Below are positions 43,201 to 63,302 of a stretch of 64,000 bases of DNA, piece by piece (position 1 is the first letter of the stretch; each line of letters begins with the position of its first letter). The stretch covers positions 128,001 through 192,000 of the forward strand of contig CAVTWJ010000002.1 in the NCBI GenBank assembly GCA_963738405.1, given 5' to 3'. Both the position numbers and the translations under genes were made by a program. The DNA comes from a candidate division FCPU426 bacterium. GTDB taxonomy: Bacteria > Oederibacteriota > Muellerivitia > Muellerivitales > Muellerivitaceae. A model generated the notes under the pieces. The model worked only from the letters and a program-made list of their open reading frames with translations. It did not search any database and was not told the DNA's origin.

Positions 43201-46150
43201 GCTTCACGGTGAAATTGGCCTGCACCTGGGAAACGGCGCTGGTGATGCCGAAATCTTCCGGCTGGAGGGTGACCGAGAAGCTGTCCCCCGTGCCCGAATA
43301 GTTGATGGGGCCCACCCAATCGGATTGCCCGTTATTGGTGTCGGTCACGAAGGCGTAGCTGGTGGAATTGACGCCCGTCGGACCGTTGGGGTTGATGTTG
43401 AGCAGGAAGGCCCGGCAGGCCCCGTTTCCGGAATCGGACGTGACGCAGGAGAGCGAGCTGGAAGCGATGGAATCGCCCGGGTATTCCAGGTTCAGGGAGC
43501 CGACCATCTTCGAATCCCAAACGGTGGTGCCGGTAGAATCATACAGGTCGGCCCGGAACTGCTGGCTCAAGGCGGGCGGGCCCTGGGTCACGCCCATGGC
43601 CTCCGCGGGGATGGTCCAGGTGAAATTGGTACAGGTATAGGTGACCGGCCCAAACATCGAGGAACTGCCGTTGGAAACGTTGGTGAGCTTCACCATGCTC
43701 ACCTGGGTGGCCGCGCAGGCGGGGGTGTAGGGGTAGATCGTGAAATTGAAGACCGAGCAATTCCCGTCCTCCAGGGTGGTGTTGCAGGCCAGGCTGGTGG
43801 TGTAGATATAGCCCGGAGGCGCCTCCAGGGAGATGGGCGAACCCGAAGGTGTAATCACTCCATAGGTCACGCCCTTGGTGGCGTCCAGAAGGATCACGCT
43901 CAAGTTGGCCGAGACCGGGCTGGAGGTGGAAGTGACCCCGAAGGATTCACCCGAGAGGTTGGCGGTGAAGGTGGTTCCCCCGCCGTTGTAGCCCCAGGGG
44001 CCGACGAAGGCGCTGGTACTGTTGGAGAGGTCCTTGACCAGCGCGTAGCTTTCGGAGTTGAACCCGGTGGGGCCGTTGGCGTTGATGGCCAGTTGAAAGA
44101 CCCTGCAGGCTCCGTCGCCCGCGTCGCTGTTGATACAGGAAACCGCTGCGGAAGAAAGGGAGGGTGTGTTAATAGGTGTGGAACTGGCCGTGGGCGAGGC
44201 GGTGGGGGTGGAGGTGGTTGTCGCCGTCTGGGTGGCCGTCAAGGTGGAGGTCGGGGTGACGGTCATCGTGGCCGTCAGGGTGGCGGTGGCCGTAACCGTA
44301 GAGGTGGAGGTCGCGAGGCTGGTGGCGGTGGCAGTCGGCGACAGGGTCACGGTTGAGGTCACCGTAAAGGTGGAGGTGTTGGAAGCGGTCGGCGTGACAG
44401 AGGGCGTAGCCGTGGGCGATAGGGTAAGGGTGGGGCTGTTCGTGACCGTAGGGGAAAGGGTGATGGTCGGGGTTGAGGTGGCGGTGAAGGTCGAAGTTGA
44501 AGTGGGCGTGTTCGTAATGGTAGGCGAAAGGGTGATGGTGGGGCTGTTCGTGACCGTCGGTGTCAGGGTGGCGGTGGAGGTGGCCGTGGGGGTGGGTGAA
44601 TCCGATCCGGTCGGTGTGGCGGTAGGTGTGCCCGTGGCCGTTGAAGTCGTCGTGGGCGTAGAGGTGGGAGTCGGCGAAAGGGTAATGGTTGGGGTGTTGG
44701 TGGCGGATGCGGACCCTGTCGGGGTGGAGGAGGCCGTAGGCGTTCCGGTGTTGGTGGGCGATGAAGTCACCGTGGGGGTATTGGTAATGGTAGGTGTGAG
44801 GGTGGCCGTTCCGGTGGAAGTGGGAGACGAGGTGATCGTGGGGCTGTTGGTTTTCGTCGGGGAAGAAGTAAACGTTCCCGTTGGTGTGGAAGTGGAAGTA
44901 AATAACGGCGTAGGCGTGCGGGTGGCTGTGGGCGTCGAGGTAAAGGTGGAAGTAGGGCTATTGGTAATCGTAAAGGTCGCGGTACTGGTGGGCGAAAGGG
45001 TGGGGGTTCCGGTATCCGTCCGGGTCGGCGATAAAGTGGGCGTGAAGCTGGGGGTGGGGCTGAAGGTTAGGGTCGGGGAAAGGGTGGGTGTTCCCGTGTT
45101 GGTGGGAGTGGGAGAAAGCGTAGGCGTGGGGGAGAAGGTGGCCGTGGGCGAGTCGGTGGGGGTAAAGGTGTTCGTGGGCACGTTGGTGGGGGATGGCTGA
45201 TGGGTGGGGCAAGTCCCCAGGTTGTCCTGGCTGGTGGGGTCAAAAGCGAAATCGCTGCCCATGTTCCAACGGTAAAAGAACAGGGGTCCGGTAGGCCCCG
45301 GCGGGATCAGGCCGAAGGGCTGGTTGGGATTCACGATTTGCAGCCAGGCGTAGCCGTTGGCGCCCGAAACCCCCAGGGAGACGCAATATACATCCCCCGT
45401 CTGAAGGGTGTTCGGGGAGGCTCCCGCCGCCAGCTTGGAAGCGGTGGAATTGGCCGAGAAAGTGGCGGGTACCGAATCGAAATTCACGATGGGGCCGTTG
45501 CCCATGTAGGCGATGCCGTTGGAACCCAGGGCGGTCAGGGCAAAACCGCCCCCCGACACGCCAATCTGCAGGTCCTGCGATGCCCCCGCGCTGGGGGAAA
45601 GGGCATCCGCTTGGAAGGTGAAATAGGCGTTTCCGCCGTACAAGGAGGTATCCACCACATAGCAGTTGCGGTTCACCGAACCCATGGTGACGGCGATGTC
45701 GCTCACTCCCCCGGCGTTGATGTCCGACAGGGCCGCGCCCATGGCCAGGGCCTGTTGGTTGGAGGGGTTGATCATCTCGAAGGACAAGAGCCTGGCGTTT
45801 CCCTGGGGCACGGCAATATCAAAATCCAGCTCGCCCGATCCCAGGGAAGAGGTCGCGATGGGCCCTGAATTTCCGGTCACCTGGGACATGTTGGGTCCCG
45901 TGATCGAATAAAGAACCTCGTTGGTCGTCACCCCAAGCAGGCTGGACTTGATTTGATTGGTGATGGGAATCGCGACGACGACATTGGCGCCCCGGATGGC
46001 CACCACGGGCATGGTGGGAGAAATTTTTCCTTGGCAGCCCCAAAGGATGGCCAAGCCCGTCAAACCCAGCCCCAACCCGATGAAGGGGATGATTGATTCC
46101 CTTCCCTTCCGGGGGCGCTTGGGCGCTCGGGGTCGGCGGGCCGGGCTCAC
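34289..46150 (-). CDS. Giant (3953 aa) repetitive surface lipoprotein
   Basis: Lipobox LWGC; long Thr/Pro/Ser linker; 14 tandem two-subdomain repeats of ~230 aa. Confidence 0.88.
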   Translation of the reverse strand: MSPARRPRAPKRPRKGRESIIPFIGLGLGLTGLAILWGCQGKISPTMPVVAIRGANVVVAIPITNQIKSSLLGVTTNEVLYSITGPNMSQVTGNSGPIATSSLGSGELDFDIAVPQGNARLLSFEMINPSNQQALAMGAALSDINAGGVSDIAVTMGSVNRNCYVVDTSLYGGNAYFTFQADALSPSAGASQDLQIGVSGGGFALTALGSNGIAYMGNGPIVNFDSVPATFSANSTASKLAAGASPNTLQTGDVYCVSLGVSGANGYAWLQIVNPNQPFGLIPPGPTGPLFFYRWNMGSDFAFDPTSQDNLGTCPTHQPSPTNVPTNTFTPTDSPTATFSPTPTLSPTPTNTGTPTLSPTLTFSPTPSFTPTLSPTRTDTGTPTLSPTSTATFTITNSPTSTFTSTPTATRTPTPLFTSTSTPTGTFTSSPTKTNSPTITSSPTSTGTATLTPTITNTPTVTSSPTNTGTPTASSTPTGSASATNTPTITLSPTPTSTPTTTSTATGTPTATPTGSDSPTPTATSTATLTPTVTNSPTITLSPTITNTPTSTSTFTATSTPTITLSPTVTNSPTLTLSPTATPSVTPTASNTSTFTVTSTVTLSPTATATSLATSTSTVTATATLTATMTVTPTSTLTATQTATTTSTPTASPTASSTPINTPSLSSAAVSCINSDAGDGACRVFQLAINANGPTGFNSESYALVKDLSNSTSAFVGPWGYNGGGTTFTANLSGESFGVTSTSSPVSANLSVILLDATKGVTYGVITPSGSPISLEAPPGYIYTTSLACNTTLEDGNCSVFNFTIYPYTPACAATQVSMVKLTNVSNGSSSMFGPVTYTCTNFTWTIPAEAMGVTQGPPALSQQFRADLYDSTGTTVWDSKMVGSLNLEYPGDSIASSSLSCVTSDSGNGACRAFLLNINPNGPTGVNSTSYAFVTDTNNGQSDWVGPINYSGTGDSFSVTLQPEDFGITSAVSQVQANFTVKLYNATENTILDTSIPSGSPLTLEGPSEYIYSHSFNCVTTAQDGACQYFTFNTTLNNPAASPVTTFVRLTDQTGPATLYLGPFVNNGPGNQAYAVTLDGELMGLTPGQTAPNHVFEETLTDPSGVTVLDDQNAGTFSYEYAANYLAGSTASCVLSDSGNGACQGFALTVDADGPAGVTSVGTALVTDTTNGQTMWIGPWNYVGNGYSYTVTLLGNDFGLTTNSAAVSTNLTVKLYDATETVLQDTDVPAGSPLTLEYPKEFINSNSFSCQTLAEDGNCALFTFNTGLDNPGSNPMTTQVVLTDQTRGVSVFLGPFVNNGGGNQAYAVTLNGAEFNLSAGQAAVGDSFLEQLYDASGVTLMDTRTAGTLSYEYPTDYLAGTSVTPFITDSGNGATRSFILNINANGPPGVNSISYALVTATKNSASTIVGPFTYTGTGSSYSVTLNGSYFGLTTNAAPITTGLNVKLYNAAQNLVLDSSTPSGSPLTLEAPAVYLYGPSYNTFGCQTTAQDGNCVYFTFNTDLYAPFSATTPVTTLVKLIDTNASPQPVTLTLGPFVNTNGSNQGHSVTLNAASFGLAPGQTAVNQTFQEQLLDAGGTTILDQQPAQNLSYEYPSPYLASASVSVLATDPGNGAVQRFVLRVSATGPTGEQSSNSAEIIDNQNSAATFVGPWTYTGSGYTYSVTLMGTSFGLTSNAAPVSTGFTVKLFDSTEAHWLDTITPTGAPITLEAPSEFIYGPGYNTFACLTAAEDGNCTEFTFNTDLDAPFSATTPVTTLVKLENLTSGVTLTLGPFVNNNGGNAGHAVTLNGASFGLSAGQTAVNQQFYEQLYDASGVTLLDQMPAQTFSYETPANYFGSASVSVLSTDPGNGAVQRFLLTVNTNGPPGLPSSNYAIVTDNTNSSTTQIGPWTYTGTGTLAVTMNGSNFGLITNAAPVSTSFTLKLYNPQNQWLDTITPTGAPISLEAPLEFIYGPGYNTFGCLTTAEDGNCTYFTYNTDLDAPFSATTPVTTLVKLIDSNALPLPVTLTLGPFVNNNGGNAAHAVTLNGASFGLTPGQTAMNQQFYEQLFDASGVTLLDQQPAQTFSYETPANYLASTSLSPIYFDSGTGAYQAIAMTINPNGPTGLQSISYADVIDTTNASTVWVGPITYVGSGDSYSVTLSTNDFNFTTASGPVSSNFIVKLYDETQVHWLDTSTPLGSPVTLEAPLGYIYSNSFSSLVMAEDGNAVTFNFNTTLDTPGASAVSFEYALVDQSIPATVFFGPVSNAQGNHAYAVTLNGASFGLSAGQEALNQQFTEQLYDASGVTLLGVSPVGTLSLENNNTTTADTLLGSGITPLLPGTGGSYQTFALSVTLGSSGAVTSTDWAYVTDLTDNKSVSVGPFTYSGPVTATFPVTLRASDFSITSTTPASKAFAVTLNSNTSPVTVLGTGIPTGSPISLVAPTQFLFRNSGYNDLSCQTVAEDGNCETFNFNYYVTSPSGASVTTYLQLVDLSASGGPVTVSAGAVTDTNGGSTSGTFSILAQQFGVTTPGQIALNQQFEELLYADSGGVTLLDTYPMGTLNLETPSPYLASSSISCVQTDLGDGACQQFLLTLNPMGPAGVNQTCYASVADLTNKTHTTVGPFTFNGTGPGYSVTLNGNQFSLNTAGAVTSASFAVTLLAANDTTVLNTSIPAGSPISFEAPEQFLLHNTNNEVTCLTQTGDGNCESFTFNYYLNGPSGPTVISYIKLVDLTASGGPITVNYGPVTDTNGGATSGSFTLLAQQFGVTTGGQIASNQQFQEYLYADSGGVTQLDTYPLGTLNLEAPSPYLASSSISCIQSDLGNGACQQFLLTLNPVGPAGVTKTCYASVADLTNNTHTTVGPFTFNGAGSASATLSGLNFSLNTAGAVTSASFAVTLLAENDSTVLNTSIPSGSPVSFEAPEQYLLHNTNNEVICLTTADDGNCEGFNFNYYLNSPSGPTVVSYLKLVDLTASGGPLTINYGPVTATNGGAISGSFLVLPKQLGMSTPGQIALNQVFEEYLYADAGGVTLLDSYPLGTLNLETPSPYLNTASVSCLVNDPATGACRSILLTLNPIGPAGVTRTVYANVYDLSNGHAALQEGPFTFTGTGSFPVTIRGTDFGLATANLPVSTAMAVTLYDQTKSHILDQAVPAGSPLTMEAPLQYFLNNGTFSPTSTGEDGNWQAFNYAPYVNAPGSATVTTMVKLIDLSNSTTVVFPPLVDTNGGGYNPSFPLLPAQFGVTAQAQIVTNQTFMAQLYDSSGVTLLDTVYPGTLNLEAPTLYLTGSSVTPLVTDTVNGAWQQVLLTLNVNAPAGNPKTSYAYVVDTSNNKNVWLGPWTYSGPSASLAATISGTTFSLTTAGLPVSTALAVTLYNDNETQPEGASVPTGSPMTLEAPLQYINSASFSCQTTAEDGNCEDFGLVAYLTSPGTTTVISRMKLIDLSNGVTVPFGPITDLNGGADDNTYYFTPQQFGVTMAGQTALSQNFALQLYDSTGVTLLDQKYPGTLNLENPSPFITSSALNCLTTDGGNGACQAFQLNLNTQGPAGVRETNYANVANSFNATITTIGPFSYTGTGSFSVTLSGKELGLSTASLPVSMQMAVTLYNSAQTKPLGVSFPAGGVPVTLETPPAYIDYTAFSNGTVAEDGNLNTFNFILYPYTPACATTQTSMIRLWDLTNGNSVTLGPVTYTCTSYSWTLTPAQFGVLPGGSALNQKFVAQLLDSTGTQVWDVQPVGTLNLEYPQDYMNSSAVNCLTTDGGNGSCQAFQLQINANAPAGVTQVSYAWVNNNSNNHGLYVGPFSYTGLGSSFTVTLSGYDLGLTTANNPAPAQLAVTLYNQAKSQVFSYGTPAGSPITLEEPPAFIDTASLASPATFLAEDGNSIGFNFTVYPYTPGCTTQTSMIRIVDVTNGNYVWLGPYTYTCSSFVIPVQATQFGLTPGQIAANQNFVAELYNSTGTAIWDTWQLGTFSIEGP
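44150..45200 (-). repeat. Thr/Pro/Ser low-complexity linker within the giant protein
   Basis: Repeated TxTxSPT / TNTPT units. Confidence 0.9.
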
Positions 46151-58329: not shown

Positions 58330-59931
58330 TTAATCGGCGATTCCCAATTTTTTCATCAAGTCGTTCGAGAAGAAATCCATTAAACGCGGGTCCCCCCCGA
58401 ATAATTTCTTTCGTTGGGCCTTCCAGACGGCCACATTGTCCCGGGCGCCGTCCTTATAAAGTTCCACCAGTTTCGCGCCGTCCAGTTTGAAATTAAACGC
58501 GTCCACCGGATAGCCGTATTTGGTCTCCTCCGGCCCCACGGGCAGGTATTTGCCCCAATGGAAGGTGAACTGAATCTTGTTCGTCTCAAATTCCACCAGG
58601 GCGTCGTTGATGTATTTCAGCACCCGGTCGCACCCCAGGCCGGCGATCTCAAAAACGCAGGTGCGGTCGAACCGTTGAAAGGCCAGAACCCCCTTCACCT
58701 TCGGCACGTAGCGCATCTCGTACCAAACAGGAATATTGGCGTTATTCAGCGTTTGGCAAATCCGCATGGCCTGGAAGCAATTTTTCATGTCCATTCCGAT
58801 AGAGCAGACGATCGACCCCGGGCCCACGTTGGTGATATAGGGGTTCTGGTCCACCAGGGTTCCGGTTTGGTTATTGATGGGGGGGTAATGGTTCGCGAAG
58901 AAGGTATTCACGATGGGGCCCACCAGCATCGGCGCCACACCCGTCAGCTGGGCCATGGTCGTGACCAGTTCCTCGCCCGAAGGGTCCAGGGCGTTTTGAA
59001 TCGGGTTATTGTTCAGTTTGGTCTTGTGCATGACGGTGACGACCGCCGTCTTGGTTTTGTCATCCGCGTAGATGTTGTTCATGACCTCGAAATGGTAAAG
59101 GGTCTCCGGGGTGGCGCCCTTAAGGTCAATGCCCGTGAAGTCGAATTCGGTCATGGCTTTTTCGAGGGAATTCAAATCCGCGTAGTAACGGGAAGCGTCC
59201 AGGTAAAAGGAGTCGGTGGCTTCCACCAGGGTTCCGTGGATAACGCCGAAGCCCCCCAAATGGTTGAGGGCTGAATAAAAAAGGTCGTCGTCCAATAAAA
59301 AATCCTCTTTTTTGATTCCCAGCTTGTTGACGAATAGGTCGGTCACGATGGGATTGCTTTGGAGGCCCAGCCAAACGTGCCGGTCGGGGCCCACGATCAC
59401 ATGAAGGCCCCTCACCGCGTCCTGCAGGGCGCCCATCCCCACTCCCCCGCCGTTGAAAGCGGAACCGTGGGTCCCGGTGGTAAAGGCCCCGACGAAGGAT
59501 TGGCCGCAGCTGGAACCGGAGACCGGAAGGGTTTTATTAAGCTGGGCCAGGGCCATCTGGGCGTCGTGGATGGACATGCCGCATTGGAAAAAGAAAAAGT
59601 TTTCGCTCTTGTTGCCGGGAAGGACATAGGGGGGATCCAGGTAGAACCAGGTTTTTAGGTACTGGGAGGCCAGCATGTAGCCCTCCGTGGCGGCGACCTT
59701 GGAGAAAGACCATCCCGCCCCCAAAACCCGGCCCCGGGCGCCCTGGGCGATCAAGTCTTTGATGAGGCCCTGAATCTCGGAAGTCTGGGTCAGGTAATCC
59801 GACAAGGTCTTGCTGGTGTCGAAGGGATTCGGGTTGTGGAGTTCGTACATGCCCTTGATGGCCTGCGTAAAAACCCAATGGGCATTGGTCCAGGACGTTA
59901 TTTGCTTTTTAAAATAATCGGTAATGGGCAC
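58330..59931 (-). CDS. FAD-linked oxidase (VAO/ALO-like)
   Basis: GAGWSFS, GAFTTGTHGS, LGGFGVI, C-terminal HWGK. Confidence 0.82.
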   Translation of the reverse strand: MPITDYFKKQITSWTNAHWVFTQAIKGMYELHNPNPFDTSKTLSDYLTQTSEIQGLIKDLIAQGARGRVLGAGWSFSKVAATEGYMLASQYLKTWFYLDPPYVLPGNKSENFFFFQCGMSIHDAQMALAQLNKTLPVSGSSCGQSFVGAFTTGTHGSAFNGGGVGMGALQDAVRGLHVIVGPDRHVWLGLQSNPIVTDLFVNKLGIKKEDFLLDDDLFYSALNHLGGFGVIHGTLVEATDSFYLDASRYYADLNSLEKAMTEFDFTGIDLKGATPETLYHFEVMNNIYADDKTKTAVVTVMHKTKLNNNPIQNALDPSGEELVTTMAQLTGVAPMLVGPIVNTFFANHYPPINNQTGTLVDQNPYITNVGPGSIVCSIGMDMKNCFQAMRICQTLNNANIPVWYEMRYVPKVKGVLAFQRFDRTCVFEIAGLGCDRVLKYINDALVEFETNKIQFTFHWGKYLPVGPEETKYGYPVDAFNFKLDGAKLVELYKDGARDNVAVWKAQRKKLFGGDPRLMDFFSNDLMKKLGIAD

Positions 59932-59977
59932 ATCGCACCTCTTAAAGCTTTTTGATGGTTTTCAGACCCTTTGCGCT

Positions 59978-60361
59978 TTATTGCCCGCTTTTTCCCGCCG
60001 GGCTTCCCAACCCGCCCCCCCGAATGGGGGCCGCGTGGCAGGTCCATTCCACGCTCATGGGGGTGGCAATCCCCAAGGTGACGATGGAACAGAGGGTTTG
60101 CCAAAAATCACGCGTGATCGTCACATCCTGCATTCCGCCCTCGGTGCAATCGGTAACCTGCAGTCCCCCGTCATTCAGGTTTCCCCACAAAAAACTCCAG
60201 GTGGTGGTCTTGCCGTCCCAGGTGGTCACAGGTGTGCTTTGCTTCAGGGAAGGGTCGTTGTTGACGGGAACTTGAACGTGGAATTCGGCGCAGGAGGTAA
60301 ACAAAAGGATGAACATCAGGAGGATTGGAAGTCGCAAAAACAGATTGGGATATTTTTTCAT
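59978..60361 (-). CDS. Bor/Iss-like lipoprotein
   Basis: Lipobox FTSC; SFLWG...C...TLGIATP..VEWTC. Confidence 0.75.
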   Translation of the reverse strand: MKKYPNLFLRLPILLMFILLFTSCAEFHVQVPVNNDPSLKQSTPVTTWDGKTTTWSFLWGNLNDGGLQVTDCTEGGMQDVTITRDFWQTLCSIVTLGIATPMSVEWTCHAAPIRGGGLGSPAGKSGQ

Positions 60362-60487
60362 GGGCTCCCCTTCAAATGTTTAAATCGCAAAAGCAAAATG
60401 ACAAATTACCCGACAGGTTTCAAATCAATTCAATGTTAAGTTTGTGAATTTTCTAAAACTGCACAAAGAATGGCCGGGATTCAATTC

Positions 60488-60616
60488 GAAAACCCGAATC
60501 ACGTTTCCAAAGGTGTTCAACAGATTGAATGTGATGGGGTAGTTGTTTAGAAGAAGGAAGCGATGATTGAATTGAAGGATGATCTGAAGACCCATTTAGT
60601 GAAGGTTAACCTAGTG
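60488..60616 (+). repeat. GH94-like C-terminal fragment, copy D (internal stop)
   Basis: GAAAACCCGAATCACGTTTCCAAAGGTGTTCAAC...GAAGGATGAT...ACCCATTTAGTGAA. Confidence 0.8.
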
Positions 60617-60639
60617 CCACAAACTTATTTTTCCAAAAA

Positions 60640-61566
60640 CTATAAAAGTTTTTTTATCCTCTTACGATAATTTTTAGCCGCTCCAAAATTTAGTTGTCGC
60701 ATATAAGCTGTTTTACCTTGCATTGATTTAAGCTCATTCGAATTAATCGATTTTCCATCAACGAGTTTTTGCTCCATATCTAATAATTGTTTTCGATATT
60801 CTCTCATTTTTTCTTTAGGGACATCAGGGCCATCCGTAACATCAACCCCCGGCGTTATTTTTCTTTCGCCGCTCAAACTCTGAAGAGTTTTTTCTGGATG
60901 CCATGTAAAACCATGATGTTCGATTGTCTTTTTTGCAGATTCGAGCATGTAATCTTTAGTTGAGGGCGGGCCAGATAAGCAGCCATCATCGCCATAAAAA
61001 GTAAATTCACCGTGAAATTTTTCGGCCACCTTTTTCAATTGGGCCGCAACACCATTGCCCTCTCCGTAGGCGATCAAAGCGGCTATTGCCGGACTCGTCA
61101 AAGCGCCCTGAGGTATTTCATCATTAAGGGTGGTTAGCTTTGCTAAACACCAGGCAACTTCCTTTGAAAGCTTCATGGTTTTCTCAAAAAATTTTAGTAC
61201 TCTCGTAAAATGAATACTTGGAAAAAAATCTTTTATATCGATCTTCACTAATACACTTGCACGAAAATGGGGTTTGGCGTTCGTTAAAATGCTTTTCCCT
61301 TTTGACCCGGTTTGCATGTAATCAGGCAAACTCATTCGACCCAAAATTAATTTTATCTTTTTTTGTAACTCTCTTAAATTTTTATTCGGATTAGATATCT
61401 TCCGCAATTTCCCTGATTTTTTTGGCTCGAATTTAATCCGATAATGCTTCCCTGTGTTGTCACAAATCCATCGCAATTGTTTTGGCGAAATGCCAAGAAA
61501 TGAACTCAATTCGTCAATCGAAGAGATGCTAATTTTTGTTTCATCGGAAGGAAGGTGGCTAAACAA
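60640..61566 (-). CDS. Retron-like reverse transcriptase
   Basis: PKKSGKLRKI, NAKPH (retron region X), DIKDFFPSI, PQGALTSP, YGDD, HPEKT, TPG at the VTG position. Confidence 0.9.
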   Translation of the reverse strand: MFSHLPSDETKISISSIDELSSFLGISPKQLRWICDNTGKHYRIKFEPKKSGKLRKISNPNKNLRELQKKIKLILGRMSLPDYMQTGSKGKSILTNAKPHFRASVLVKIDIKDFFPSIHFTRVLKFFEKTMKLSKEVAWCLAKLTTLNDEIPQGALTSPAIAALIAYGEGNGVAAQLKKVAEKFHGEFTFYGDDGCLSGPPSTKDYMLESAKKTIEHHGFTWHPEKTLQSLSGERKITPGVDVTDGPDVPKEKMREYRKQLLDMEQKLVDGKSINSNELKSMQGKTAYMRQLNFGAAKNYRKRIKKLL

Positions 61567-61774
61567 AACAAACGTCTCCGTTTTCCAACATATAGTTATT
61601 GATTATGGAATCCCACGCCGCCAATAACTCCGCCACCCACTTGATAACCCCCATCCCCTTGAAAAGAGCTGGAAGGATAAATAGGTAGGGCTTTAATAGC
61701 TGTCGGACCCGCCTTGAAGTACTTTCCCTTGAAACTTTTAACAAGGATTTCCTTCGGTTCGTCCTTTTGGCCAT
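61559..61774 (-). CDS. 71-aa basic/hydrophobic orphan protein, candidate RT-system effector
   Basis: AAAGGGGGTG RBS; stop overlaps the RT start; Arg/Lys-rich N-terminus then hydrophobic helix. Confidence 0.65.
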   Translation of the reverse strand: MAKRTNRRKSLLKVSRESTSRRVRQLLKPYLFILPALFKGMGVIKWVAELLAAWDSIINNYMLENGDVCFV

Positions 61775-61789
61775 GCTGATCACCCCCTT

Positions 61790-62095
61790 TGCATTAATTC
61801 GTGGACGTCAGGCGGACCGATTCGGAGTAAATAATCGGCTCCATAAATAACTAAATTCGCATTTTTCATGCGATTCAATTTTCTTAATAAGAACAAGAAA
61901 ATCTAAGAAATCAAGATTCTAAACTTTTAACCCATTGCCCAAAGATGCAAGGAGCAATAAAGAAGAACCAAGACTCTAGAACCACCGGCAATTGTTTCAA
62001 AAAAAATGGCAACCGGGGGGGTCTGTACGGTGGGGTGATTAACACCCATGTCCACTTCGGGGTGAGGCCTTTGCCTCCTTTCGAATTCTAAAATG
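61790..62095 (-). ncRNA. Candidate RT-associated ncRNA (msr/msd-like)
   Basis: End pairing AATTC+GTGGAC / GTCCAC+GAATT enclosing several hairpins, directly upstream of the small ORF and RT. Confidence 0.55.
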
Positions 62096-62224
62096 CTAAA
62101 TTTAATTTAAGGCGAGATGAATTTATTAACAAGGGGTTGGGATGTTTTAAAAAAAACGTCAAAAATGCGGAATTTTCACAAACAAGGGGGCAAGGCCCCT
62201 ATTTTATTCACAACGCAAATGGGT

Positions 62225-62824
62225 TTATTTCGGATGCACTGTAAAATTACTCCTGTTTTTTACTCGCCCGATTTTAGGAACATCACCTTTTGAAATACTT
62301 TTTAACAATTTTTTCAACTCATTAGATTGGCCATAAAAAACTTCGCCAGTCGATAATTGGACAAAAGCCCATCTTGCTTTAAAGAAGTCCCCAAGTGCAT
62401 AAAACCTAATGGGAATGCTAGCAAAAAACTCAGTTCTGCTTTCCAAAACTACCGGCCAATCCAAATCCTTTTGCAACCGGTTAAAAACCCTATTAGGTAT
62501 TTCTGCCGGAAATCTCGCCATATTCTTTTTCGCCTCAATTAACCCTACCATACGAACTTGAACCGGAAATGAAGATTTATTCACGATTTCCAAAATAACC
62601 TCAGTACTCATTTCTTCCTTTTGGGGTTTCCCGCCTTTTTCCCCGACAACAGTGACCGATATTAGGTGTGGTTTTATTAAAACTTTCGCTTTGTCCTTGT
62701 TTCGGTTATAGAAAAAATTAGCAAGACTCAACACAAACCCAAACCAAGCAGCCAGCATTGTTAGTATTCCTAAAACAATAGTTAAAATATCTTTCAGGGA
62801 TATGTCAGAAATGGTAAAGGTCAT
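62225..62824 (-). CDS. Hypothetical protein with N-terminal TM
   Basis: 199-aa ORF, AT-rich. Confidence 0.65.
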   Translation of the reverse strand: MTFTISDISLKDILTIVLGILTMLAAWFGFVLSLANFFYNRNKDKAKVLIKPHLISVTVVGEKGGKPQKEEMSTEVILEIVNKSSFPVQVRMVGLIEAKKNMARFPAEIPNRVFNRLQKDLDWPVVLESRTEFFASIPIRFYALGDFFKARWAFVQLSTGEVFYGQSNELKKLLKSISKGDVPKIGRVKNRSNFTVHPK

Positions 62825-62828
62825 CTTT

Positions 62829-63302
62829 TTAGTCCTTCAGTTTTTTGAGAAAACCAGAAATCTTTTCAGGCGACGTCCAATTACCACCCATTTGGCCGAA
62901 TTGGATAATTGGCTCGGAGGACCCATCCTTCATCACCCGAAAAATAGTTAGTGAATGCGGTTTTCGTGGAAACATAGAGCCGAGGAACGAAGCAACTCTA
63001 CCTGGAAAATCTGTTTTATTCCAAGTCAACGAAAAGGCTTCCGGCCCCTCTTCAAAAGGAATCACTCCATAGGCATAATCACCTTCAGGCGCCTCTTTCA
63101 TAATTCTTTTCCAATGGACTTCCAATTCATCAACAAAACGCTTTTTTTCTATGGGGTGGTCAAAATCTTCTCTTAAGTACTTGGAAGTCACATTTTCCTT
63201 AAAGCCACAAATACATTGGCCAAAATACTTAATGCCTTCCTCATCCCCACCTGAATAAACCGTTAGTTCTCTACCACACCGTTCACAAATGTACTTGTCC
63301 AT
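62829..63302 (-). CDS. Hypothetical protein with N-terminal Cys cluster
   Basis: CERC...CIC; GGAGAGG RBS. Confidence 0.65.
   Translation of the reverse strand: MDKYICERCGRELTVYSGGDEEGIKYFGQCICGFKENVTSKYLREDFDHPIEKKRFVDELEVHWKRIMKEAPEGDYAYGVIPFEEGPEAFSLTWNKTDFPGRVASFLGSMFPRKPHSLTIFRVMKDGSSEPIIQFGQMGGNWTSPEKISGFLKKLKD

Follow-up and report, generated by a model that had tools for sequence, protein, structure and literature searches.

A candidate two-gene, HTH-less retron of the Type VI lineage with a predicted long-range RNA clamp on the ribosome-binding site of its small protein

The stretch of DNA analysed, hereafter the window, comprises 64,000 nucleotides (positions 128,001 to 192,000 of contig CAVTWJ010000002.1) from the genome of a candidate division FCPU426 bacterium (G000, 90.66% complete). 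Near its end, on the minus strand, lies a locus (L001) composed of a structured leader (61775-62095), a gene for a small protein of 71 aa, SP (61559-61774; ATG at 61774, stop at 61559), which is preceded by a ribosome-binding site (RBS), and a gene for a retron reverse transcriptase (RT) of 308 aa (60640-61566), which starts with TTG and overlaps the end of SP by 8 nt. The block from about 60400 to 63200 has a G+C content of 34-44%, against mostly 53-58% on both flanks, as for an acquired islet. Two further minus-strand ORFs (62225-63302) share this islet, one of 157 aa with N-terminal Cys motifs and one of 199 aa (62824-62225) with an N-terminal hydrophobic helix; these were considered as parts of the system and rejected, as they are missing beside the second copy of the locus described below and gave no Pfam match above cut-off. 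Downstream of the RT, at host-like GC, are a Bor-like lipoprotein gene (a weak Pfam match) and a FAD_binding_4 gene (58330-60361, minus strand). Elsewhere, positions 44001-46000 have a strong GC skew (0.34) compared with the remainder of the window, and past the window end (L310:9191-9824) a Nucleotidyltransferase and HepT-like toxin-antitoxin pair is located upstream of an SNF2 helicase gene.

The RT matched Pfam RVT_1 and, of 45 PADLOC models, scored best with RT_VI (1.8e-63; next model 4e-55), while its scores with the NCBIfam retron models were under the cut-offs. The motifs NAKPH (residues 96-100), D110 and YGDD (191-194) were identified, and D110, NAxxH and YGDD, with all three catalytic aspartates intact, are invariant in all four close RTs (50-86% identity). 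Canonical retrons have a VTG motif in RT region Y and an a1/a2 stem with a branching G geometry. The VTG position reads TPG in all four close RTs, where Ec86 has KVTG. YGDD was found in five further retron-like matches, and a literature search for YGDD retron RTs found no paper.

SP has a basic N-terminus, a hydrophobic middle and an amphipathic C-terminal helix (hydrophobic moment 0.43-0.65 over residues 40-59), and is likely to be a toxic effector. SP had no match in Pfam, PADLOC or NCBIfam, and a homolog search returned only SP itself. Type VI SPs are characterised by a bundle of two or three helices; here a poor AlphaFold2 model, built on an alignment of just two sequences, consisted of one long helix (pLDDT 62, pTM 0.26; best Atlas score 0.80).

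Two close RTs are known as proteins, P0004 (86% identical) and P0005 (73%), and the next group is 31-40% identical. Among 99 genomes of the host phylum, three matches at E 1e-40 or better were obtained: the host itself, G010 (85% complete), which carries the locus L002, and G039, which carries an ordinary SP-HTH-RT locus (L003). The lineage of the window RT is patchily distributed, being present in 2/99 genomes of the phylum. Searches of other phyla matched 7/401, 3/135 and 8/401 genomes; no further close homolog with DNA was present among the genome-contig matches listed, the metagenome contigs gave two distant loci and the viral contigs none. The RNA pattern occurred at 49 loci on viral contigs, none with an RT. 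The alignable RNA comparison comprises two copies, the window and L002.

L002 comes from another genus of the same family, and its RT is 51% identical to that of the window. The gene order is the same: a leader, an SP of 75 aa preceded by an RBS, and a TTG-started RT with the same overlap. The two SPs are 26-29% identical (E 5e-5) and have SIINNY in common, and KW-x-AEL is shared by the SP of a more distant locus, L087 (E 0.033). Identity between the two RTs was 0.60, 0.72 and 0.40 at the three codon positions (302 codons), and 14/59 four-fold sites were identical; judged by these codons, both RTs are under purifying selection and their synonymous sites are saturated. The neighbourhood of L002 (L311:227-8124, G010 contig 80) is a defence island with a methyltransferase and BsoBI-type endonuclease, an AbiEi/AbiEii pair and a DUF4238 gene converging on the RT.

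An unusual feature, which the earlier note on this DNA did not mention, is the missing HTH gene. Type VI retrons are defined by a Cro/C1 HTH (cluster 2_1) in the work of Mestre et al. 2020 (PMC7736814), and about 78% of 158 Type VI entries are reported to encode an HTH and about 22% not (10.64898/2026.04.27.721009). In the window locus and L002 no HTH gene or remnant was found, and SP overlaps the RT directly. The RT starts 31 nt past the AAC codon of IR2, a segment inside SP described below, and at that place the HTH gene starts in L250 and L251 (28 nt); this spacing of the starts suggests a clean deletion. In L087, L250, L251, L253 and L254 the SP frame does not end ahead of the HTH gene but overlaps it by over 50 nt. 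Genome-wide, the HTH_VI profile gave three matches in the host (E 3e-9 or weaker) and five in G010 (best E 1e-13), all partial, on other contigs and spanning about 55-65 of the 92 model positions, compared with E-values of 6e-23 and 8e-18 for the cognate HTHs of G039 and G582, which span almost the entire model. The weak matches are taken to be ordinary XRE proteins because HTH_VI matched 13 of 14 control genomes. The gene order was surveyed in 39 of 260 loci, picked by RT score. An HTH was carried by 16 of the 39 (seven of which had built the profile), six had a small ORF directly before the RT and no HTH (the window locus, L002, L088, L118, L259 and L260), and the remainder were other retron types or incomplete.

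In a quick tree of 79 rows, the window clade (four rows, SH-aLRT 100, stem 1.05) was nested in a clade of 34 rows (SH-aLRT 92), and in a quick tree of 24 rows the wider clade had an SH-aLRT of 80; both were quick searches with long branches, the long RT frames were trimmed N-terminally and no named reference RT was included. By sequence, the RT falls within the Type VI (clade 3) lineage. The locus is filed as an HTH-less variant rather than as a canonical Type VI member because the defining HTH is absent. DNA was available for six rows of the 34-row clade; an HTH is present in L087, L250 and L251 and absent from the window, L002 and L088. A common origin for every HTH-less locus of the clade was rejected (p-AU 0.0037, 24-row quick tree with long branches). 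L088 (L088:2240-3891, Candidatus Hydrogenedentes) is a second, independent HTH-less locus; SP and RT are separated there by about 90-150 nt that hold no trace of an HTH, IR1-like and IR2-like segments are present, and the locus is followed by a gene that, by its motif, resembles one for a DNA cytosine methyltransferase. Four loci from Omnitrophota (L118:2676-3927, L259:1311-2436, L260 and L258) form a separate RT clade (SH-aLRT 97-99), for which the best PADLOC model was RT_III-A in the three scanned (L118, L259 and L258). Each has a small ORF, basic and then hydrophobic, between a non-coding gap and an RT, with no HTH and no PRTase-like partner seen; they are possibly another undescribed two-gene retron.

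The leader had been read in the earlier note as a candidate retron RNA. All of the motifs named there are present on the minus strand, with AATGC at 61795-61791, and the leader does adjoin a retron RT and a small protein gene. Folded alone, 61775-62095 had an MFE of -90.7 kcal/mol (z -1.96; 3 of 100 shuffles equally stable), and the 549-nt RNA that includes SP had a z of -1.71. Folding energy alone was a marginal discriminator because the opposite strand of 61775-62095 scored z -1.68 as well (5 of 100 shuffles equally stable); the homologous leader of L002 gave z -4.34, with 0 of 100 shuffles equally stable. No Rfam family matched the window. A promoter-like TTGTTA-17-TAAATT (62104-62132, minus strand) was read by eye, with 8/12 consensus bases and below the scanner threshold, and from this transcription would start near 62103-62097. 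Further upstream, a terminator-like hairpin after the 199-aa ORF (62185-62200, minus strand) would set the retron transcript apart from that ORF; it is weak evidence because five such sites were found against 3.4 expected. From the models, the RNA likely runs on through SP, beyond the leader.

On the minus strand and from the 5' end, the predicted RNA opens with the 5' arm of P0 (62093-62100), which lies within a AAATTTAGC block common to L002. This is followed by a 5-bp hairpin, GAGGC/GCCUC (62064-62077), the 5' strand of which is SD-like and which overlaps by 2 nt (5 nt in L002) an anti-RBS, UCACCCC (62059-62065). The a1-like arm GUGGAC (62050-62055) is invariant in L002, and the adjacent msr-like hairpin GGGUG/CACCC (62033-62047) differs there by one two-sided change (UA to CG) and one one-sided change. 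A block CCGUACAG..CCCCCGGU (62012-62030) was found, among 309 loci, only in the window locus and L002, and is a candidate RT-recognition element. The variable structured region 61880-61981 may be the msd template; its G-U-rich stem and AUUUUCUU hairpin are both in the MFE structure, yet the region is not alignable with L002. A small hairpin (61857-61873; p 1.0), with same-place hairpins in L002, L088, L250 and L251, lies directly 5' of IR1 (UAGUUAUUUAUGGAG, 61839-61853), and a hairpin CCGAUU/AAUCGG (61817-61838; p 0.82-0.99) separates IR1 from the a2-like arm GUCCAC (61801-61806), after which comes the SP RBS (GGGGGUGA, 61780-61787). IR2, which is complementary to IR1, is inside the SP coding sequence (61593-61610, codons for SIINN), and the 3' arm of P0 follows (61584-61591). 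The four hairpins proposed earlier at 62064-62077, 62033-62047, 61857-61873 and 61817-61838 were all predicted by folding, and L002 has equivalents of the first two and of the one preceding IR1. The leader stems before a2 are all short or interrupted, in keeping with the absence of a long msd hairpin already noted. Within SP, the 3' half of the coding sequence is predicted in both loci to form a long hairpin that immediately precedes IR2 (window 61605-61705; L002 2445-2545, minus strand), and Retron-Sen3 is also structured within SP. The RT RBS is in a small hairpin just past P0 in both loci (window 61570-61584; L002 2400-2420), and both RTs are TTG-started, features by which translation of the RT may be coupled to that of SP.

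Two sets of helices can be formed by this RNA. In the first, fold A, GUGGAC is paired with GUCCAC and the anti-RBS with the RBS. The GUGGAC:GUCCAC pairing, already proposed, had a p of 0.90-0.93 when the leader was folded alone; L002 has the identical pairing, extended there to 9 bp. The helices proposed to lie outside it were not recovered: AATTC:GAATT had a p of about 0.01, with the 3' GAATT missing from L002, and the GCATT:AATGC extension a p of 0.05-0.08. Nor did the 3' arm stop before the RBS as supposed; instead the helix continues, and 62065-62059 forms seven Watson-Crick pairs with 61780-61786, some 280 nt downstream (p 0.81-0.84). The RBS was unpaired at 0.13-0.20, and is thus computed to be sequestered in the RNA. 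The G proposed as the branch nucleotide (62047) does follow GUGGAC, but it is a branch candidate only, because it is predicted to take part in the first base pair of the adjacent hairpin (p 0.86; 0.97 for the G after the a1-like stem of L002).

Every pair of the anti-RBS:RBS helix is Watson-Crick in the window and in L002, with two-sided changes in three of the 6-7 pairs in either register. A clamp of 7 + 6 bp was reached by 34/5000 dinucleotide shuffles of the window and 22/5000 of L002, and by 1/336 control genes (host genes with an SD); these two lengths were those of the helices observed, and a relaxed 5 + 5 test was uninformative (62/336 controls). Counting against the clamp, the anti-RBS complement alone was reached by 92/1000 (window) and 202/1000 (L002) shuffles, and the longest complement of the window RBS is a second site at 62039-62032 (p under 0.05). 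Pairing of the SD is common in computed folds: of the 294 control genes folded from the 336, 36% had the SD unpaired at 0.2 or less, and in 39 it paired far upstream. The clamp was absent from all four sister-clade loci with DNA (L088, L250, L251 and L087). Since L088 has neither HTH nor clamp, either the clamp is not the sole route around the HTH or L088 has decayed. In the HTH-bearing sister L250 (L250:605-625), a 5' hairpin is made up of anti-SD-like and SD-like strands in the reverse order to that of the window. When transcripts of increasing length were folded, fold A dominated most of those of the window up to +130 of SP (five of the first seven steps), and all lengths in L002.

In fold B, IR1 (61853-61839) is paired with IR2 (61610-61593) and the arms of P0 with one another (62093-62100 with 61591-61584). 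In the 549-nt fold, p was 0.75-0.99 at most IR1:IR2 bases, the 5' hairpin closed over the anti-RBS, the 5' end paired just beyond IR2 and the SD was 0.85 unpaired; the AUG was still paired (p 0.91-0.94). Folds A and B cross and do not coexist as a nested structure. In the window, fold B was about 5 kcal/mol better than A at 526-548 nt, tied with it at 578 nt, and prevailed at +190 to +210. L002 is able to form the fold B helices, with different letters in P0, and there fold B was about 10 kcal/mol worse than A.

The IR1:IR2 helix is possible in 5/6 of the clade loci and dominant in the window alone (not in L002, L088, L250 or L251). An anchored duplex test was equalled by 2 of 1000 shuffles for the window, 12 for L002, 65 for L088, 95 for L250, 105 for L251 and 274 for L087, with leader and target ranges that were set after inspection of the data; L087 failed this test. 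In the window, L002, L088, L250 and L251 a hairpin is followed by CG and then, between -78 and -91, by YAGUU, to which a 5-bp complement exists near the end of SP. This outer helix begins with a UA pair in the window and L002 and with a CG pair in L088, L250 and L251, and the motif occurs in about 0.014 of 60-nt segments of the host genome. An unanchored leader-to-SP duplex test failed, with 18, 54, 42, 26, 4 and 27 of 60 shuffles as good (L001, L002, L088, L250, L251 and L087 respectively), and in a cross matrix of unanchored duplexes the cognate pairs were not the best. A covariance model of the IR1 region built on five loci matched only those five training loci among 22. Leave-out profiles of the IR1 region gave no significant link between the window and the sister loci: they placed L002 sixth among 339 targets (E 2.8), with the window not reported, and the reverse search had no match. 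IR1:IR2 therefore has good support in the window and L002 and is only suggestive clade-wide. There was no invariant G after IR2 across five loci, and no conserved 7-nt direct repeat of the Retron-Vpa2 type, as the window has three repeats of 6-7 nt between -130..-62 and -62..+30 and L002 none of at least 6 nt in these ranges. A second partner of IR1 near -25, which was strong in L002 (-9.6) and L088 (-6.8) and weak in the window (-2.1), L250 and L251, was dropped.

Taking together the gene order, the HTH absence, the RT lineage, the intact catalytic aspartates and the two helix sets kept across genera, as read from the sequence and with the tools used, the interpretation we favour, with a probability of roughly 0.45, is that the leader is the non-coding 5' part of a hybrid RNA of a two-gene, HTH-less retron of the Type VI lineage, in which a clamp on the RBS silences the predicted toxin SP and phage-triggered reverse transcription releases it. 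The promoter-like sequence near 62132-62104 would yield an RNA of about 545 nt. On modelling, fold A would form first during transcription and block SP initiation with no need of a protein antitoxin, so that the clamp would do the job of the HTH in Retron-Vpa2 and Retron-Sen3; fold B would free the SD and hand the anti-RBS back to the 5' hairpin. By analogy with Retron-Vpa2, phage infection would lead to accumulation of RT-DNA. Copying of the leader with removal of the template by RNase H, or annealing of the cDNA, could then break the clamp or shift the RNA to fold B, whereupon SP would be translated and the cell arrested, again as in Retron-Vpa2. Priming may occur at the G after GUGGAC (the canonical geometry, in fold A) or at the end beside IR2 (in fold B); in the latter case the template would begin with the hairpin 61873-61857, which would then be comparable to the 5' stem-loop of the Retron-Vpa2 msDNA. 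A broader claim, on which we are distinctly more tentative, is that the lineage swapped an essential HTH antitoxin for a bistable hybrid RNA. In that RNA the toxin gene would be locked across 280 nt by the 5' anti-RBS, and an incompatible IR1:IR2 helix, with IR2 in toxin codons, would prime or result from reverse transcription.

Two other accounts, each unlikely, were weighed against the favoured one. SP may be made at rest and held inactive post-translationally, by an RT-RNA-cDNA complex or an unlinked host HTH, with the helices serving priming and RNA stability. There is precedent in Retron-Sen3, for which constitutive SP and post-translational control are reported despite an RBS predicted in a stem (10.64898/2026.04.27.721009), and the amphipathic C-terminal helix of SP, modelled there as the HTH interface, is found here too. 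An unlinked partner might be sought among the XRE-type matches in the host (three, in a genome 90.66% complete) and G010 (five), yet these are partial where the cognate HTHs reach 6e-23 and 8e-18, and their family is found in 13/14 control genomes. The RT, for its part, is reported to be no substitute for the HTH in Retron-Vpa2 and Retron-Sen3, and control at the protein level would leave the parallel change of anti-RBS and RBS unexplained.

On the second account, which we hold equally improbable, the clamp is a constitutive damper that keeps SP tolerably low in the absence of the HTH, there is no switch from A to B, and IR1:IR2 is the priming helix of the RT only. The dominance of fold A at all lengths of L002 is consistent with this, as is the occurrence of IR1:IR2, unlike the clamp, in HTH-bearing sister loci, and Zhang et al. 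(10.1101/2025.10.22.683967) compare the 3' inverted repeat of Retron-Vpa2 with a1/a2. However, the two helix sets cross, so formation of a priming helix would itself open the clamp, and in L002 a competing 5' hairpin overlaps the anti-RBS fully. Still less probable is an attenuated relic, in which SP lost its toxicity, the HTH became dispensable and was deleted, the RT (YGDD, TPG) is weak or repurposed and the RNA gates nothing: the low identity of the SPs (26-29%), the long branch at the base of the RT clade (1.05-1.52), the altered VTG hallmark and the patchy distribution (2/99) would fit, but four intact RTs (50-86% identity) keep three catalytic Asp and NAxxH with synonymous sites saturated, the RNA helices are conserved between genera, YGDD recurs in five other retron-like matches and L002 sits among defence genes.

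Were the exchange of the HTH for a bistable RNA correct, the locus would represent a minimal two-gene immune circuit in which an RT directly throws a riboswitch. A translation switch of two genes and 1.5 kb, RT-controlled and with defined helices, would also make a compact biosensing part. Loss of HTH function is reported to be toxic in both Type VI systems tested, Retron-Vpa2 and Retron-Sen3, for which the papers differ between translational and post-translational control. As a natural HTH-less system removes the HTH component, restraint of the toxin by RNA only and its opening by RT-DNA become directly testable. A literature search turned up no work on Type VI systems without an HTH, in a scope that took in few subscription journals and with preprint supplements that may name such members; the SPIRE survey describes Type VI as an expansion of a known type (PMC13712802).

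Retron-Vpa2 is described as having a 470-nt RNA that holds msr-msd and the SP gene, in which stems enclose the RBS and the AUG and an inverted repeat at the 3' side resembles a1/a2; deletion of the leader or mutation of the HTH is reported to be toxic and mutation of the RT not, and SP translation to require msDNA (10.1101/2025.10.22.683967). Compared by description, the present locus shares an RT of the Type VI lineage, and is predicted to share the ncRNA continuous with the SP gene, the RBS in a stem and the pairing of the SP 3' end to the leader, with a hybrid RNA of about 545 nt against about 470 nt. Retron-Vpa2 differs in having an HTH (a point mutant of which is toxic), local stem-loops at the RBS, a 7-nt direct repeat between the msd loop and the riboregulator loop, and an RT with YADD, whereas the present locus has no HTH, a predicted long-range anti-RBS from the 5' end on the RBS, and YGDD.

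In Retron-Sen3 (Type VI cl2075) the RBS is reported to be in a basal stem, with an alternative IR1-IR2 pairing and an essential 5-bp 5' stem-loop; SP is constitutive and neutralised by the HTH, and an HTH frameshift was not maintainable (10.64898/2026.04.27.721009). Predicted parallels here are the closure of the RBS-bearing basal stem by repeats on its 5' and 3' sides, the alternative IR1-IR2 pairing around SP, the 5-bp stem-loop immediately preceding the 5' repeat (compare 62064-62077) and the amphipathic C-terminal helix of SP. Retron-Sen3 differs in the need of the HTH for viability, in post-translational control, in an RT with YVDD and in the position of IR2, which is downstream of the SP stop there and inside the SP coding sequence here. 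With Type VI as defined by Mestre et al. (PMC7736814) the RT lineage and a small upstream protein (71 aa here) are shared, and the defining HTH is absent. Canonical retrons (Eco1/Ec86) have in common with the locus NAxxH and YxDD and, as predicted by folding, a closing stem resembling a1/a2 followed by a G and a hairpin; here, in contrast, a1/a2 is just 6-9 bp, there is no long msd hairpin in the leader, TPG stands for VTG and the effector gene would lie within the RNA. RT-gated translation of SP is plausible yet not new, because it has already been published for Retron-Vpa2 (10.1101/2025.10.22.683967). By analogy the locus would work most like Retron-Vpa2; derepression of SP by RT-DNA is already known, and what is new here is the missing HTH antitoxin together with a covarying long-range clamp.
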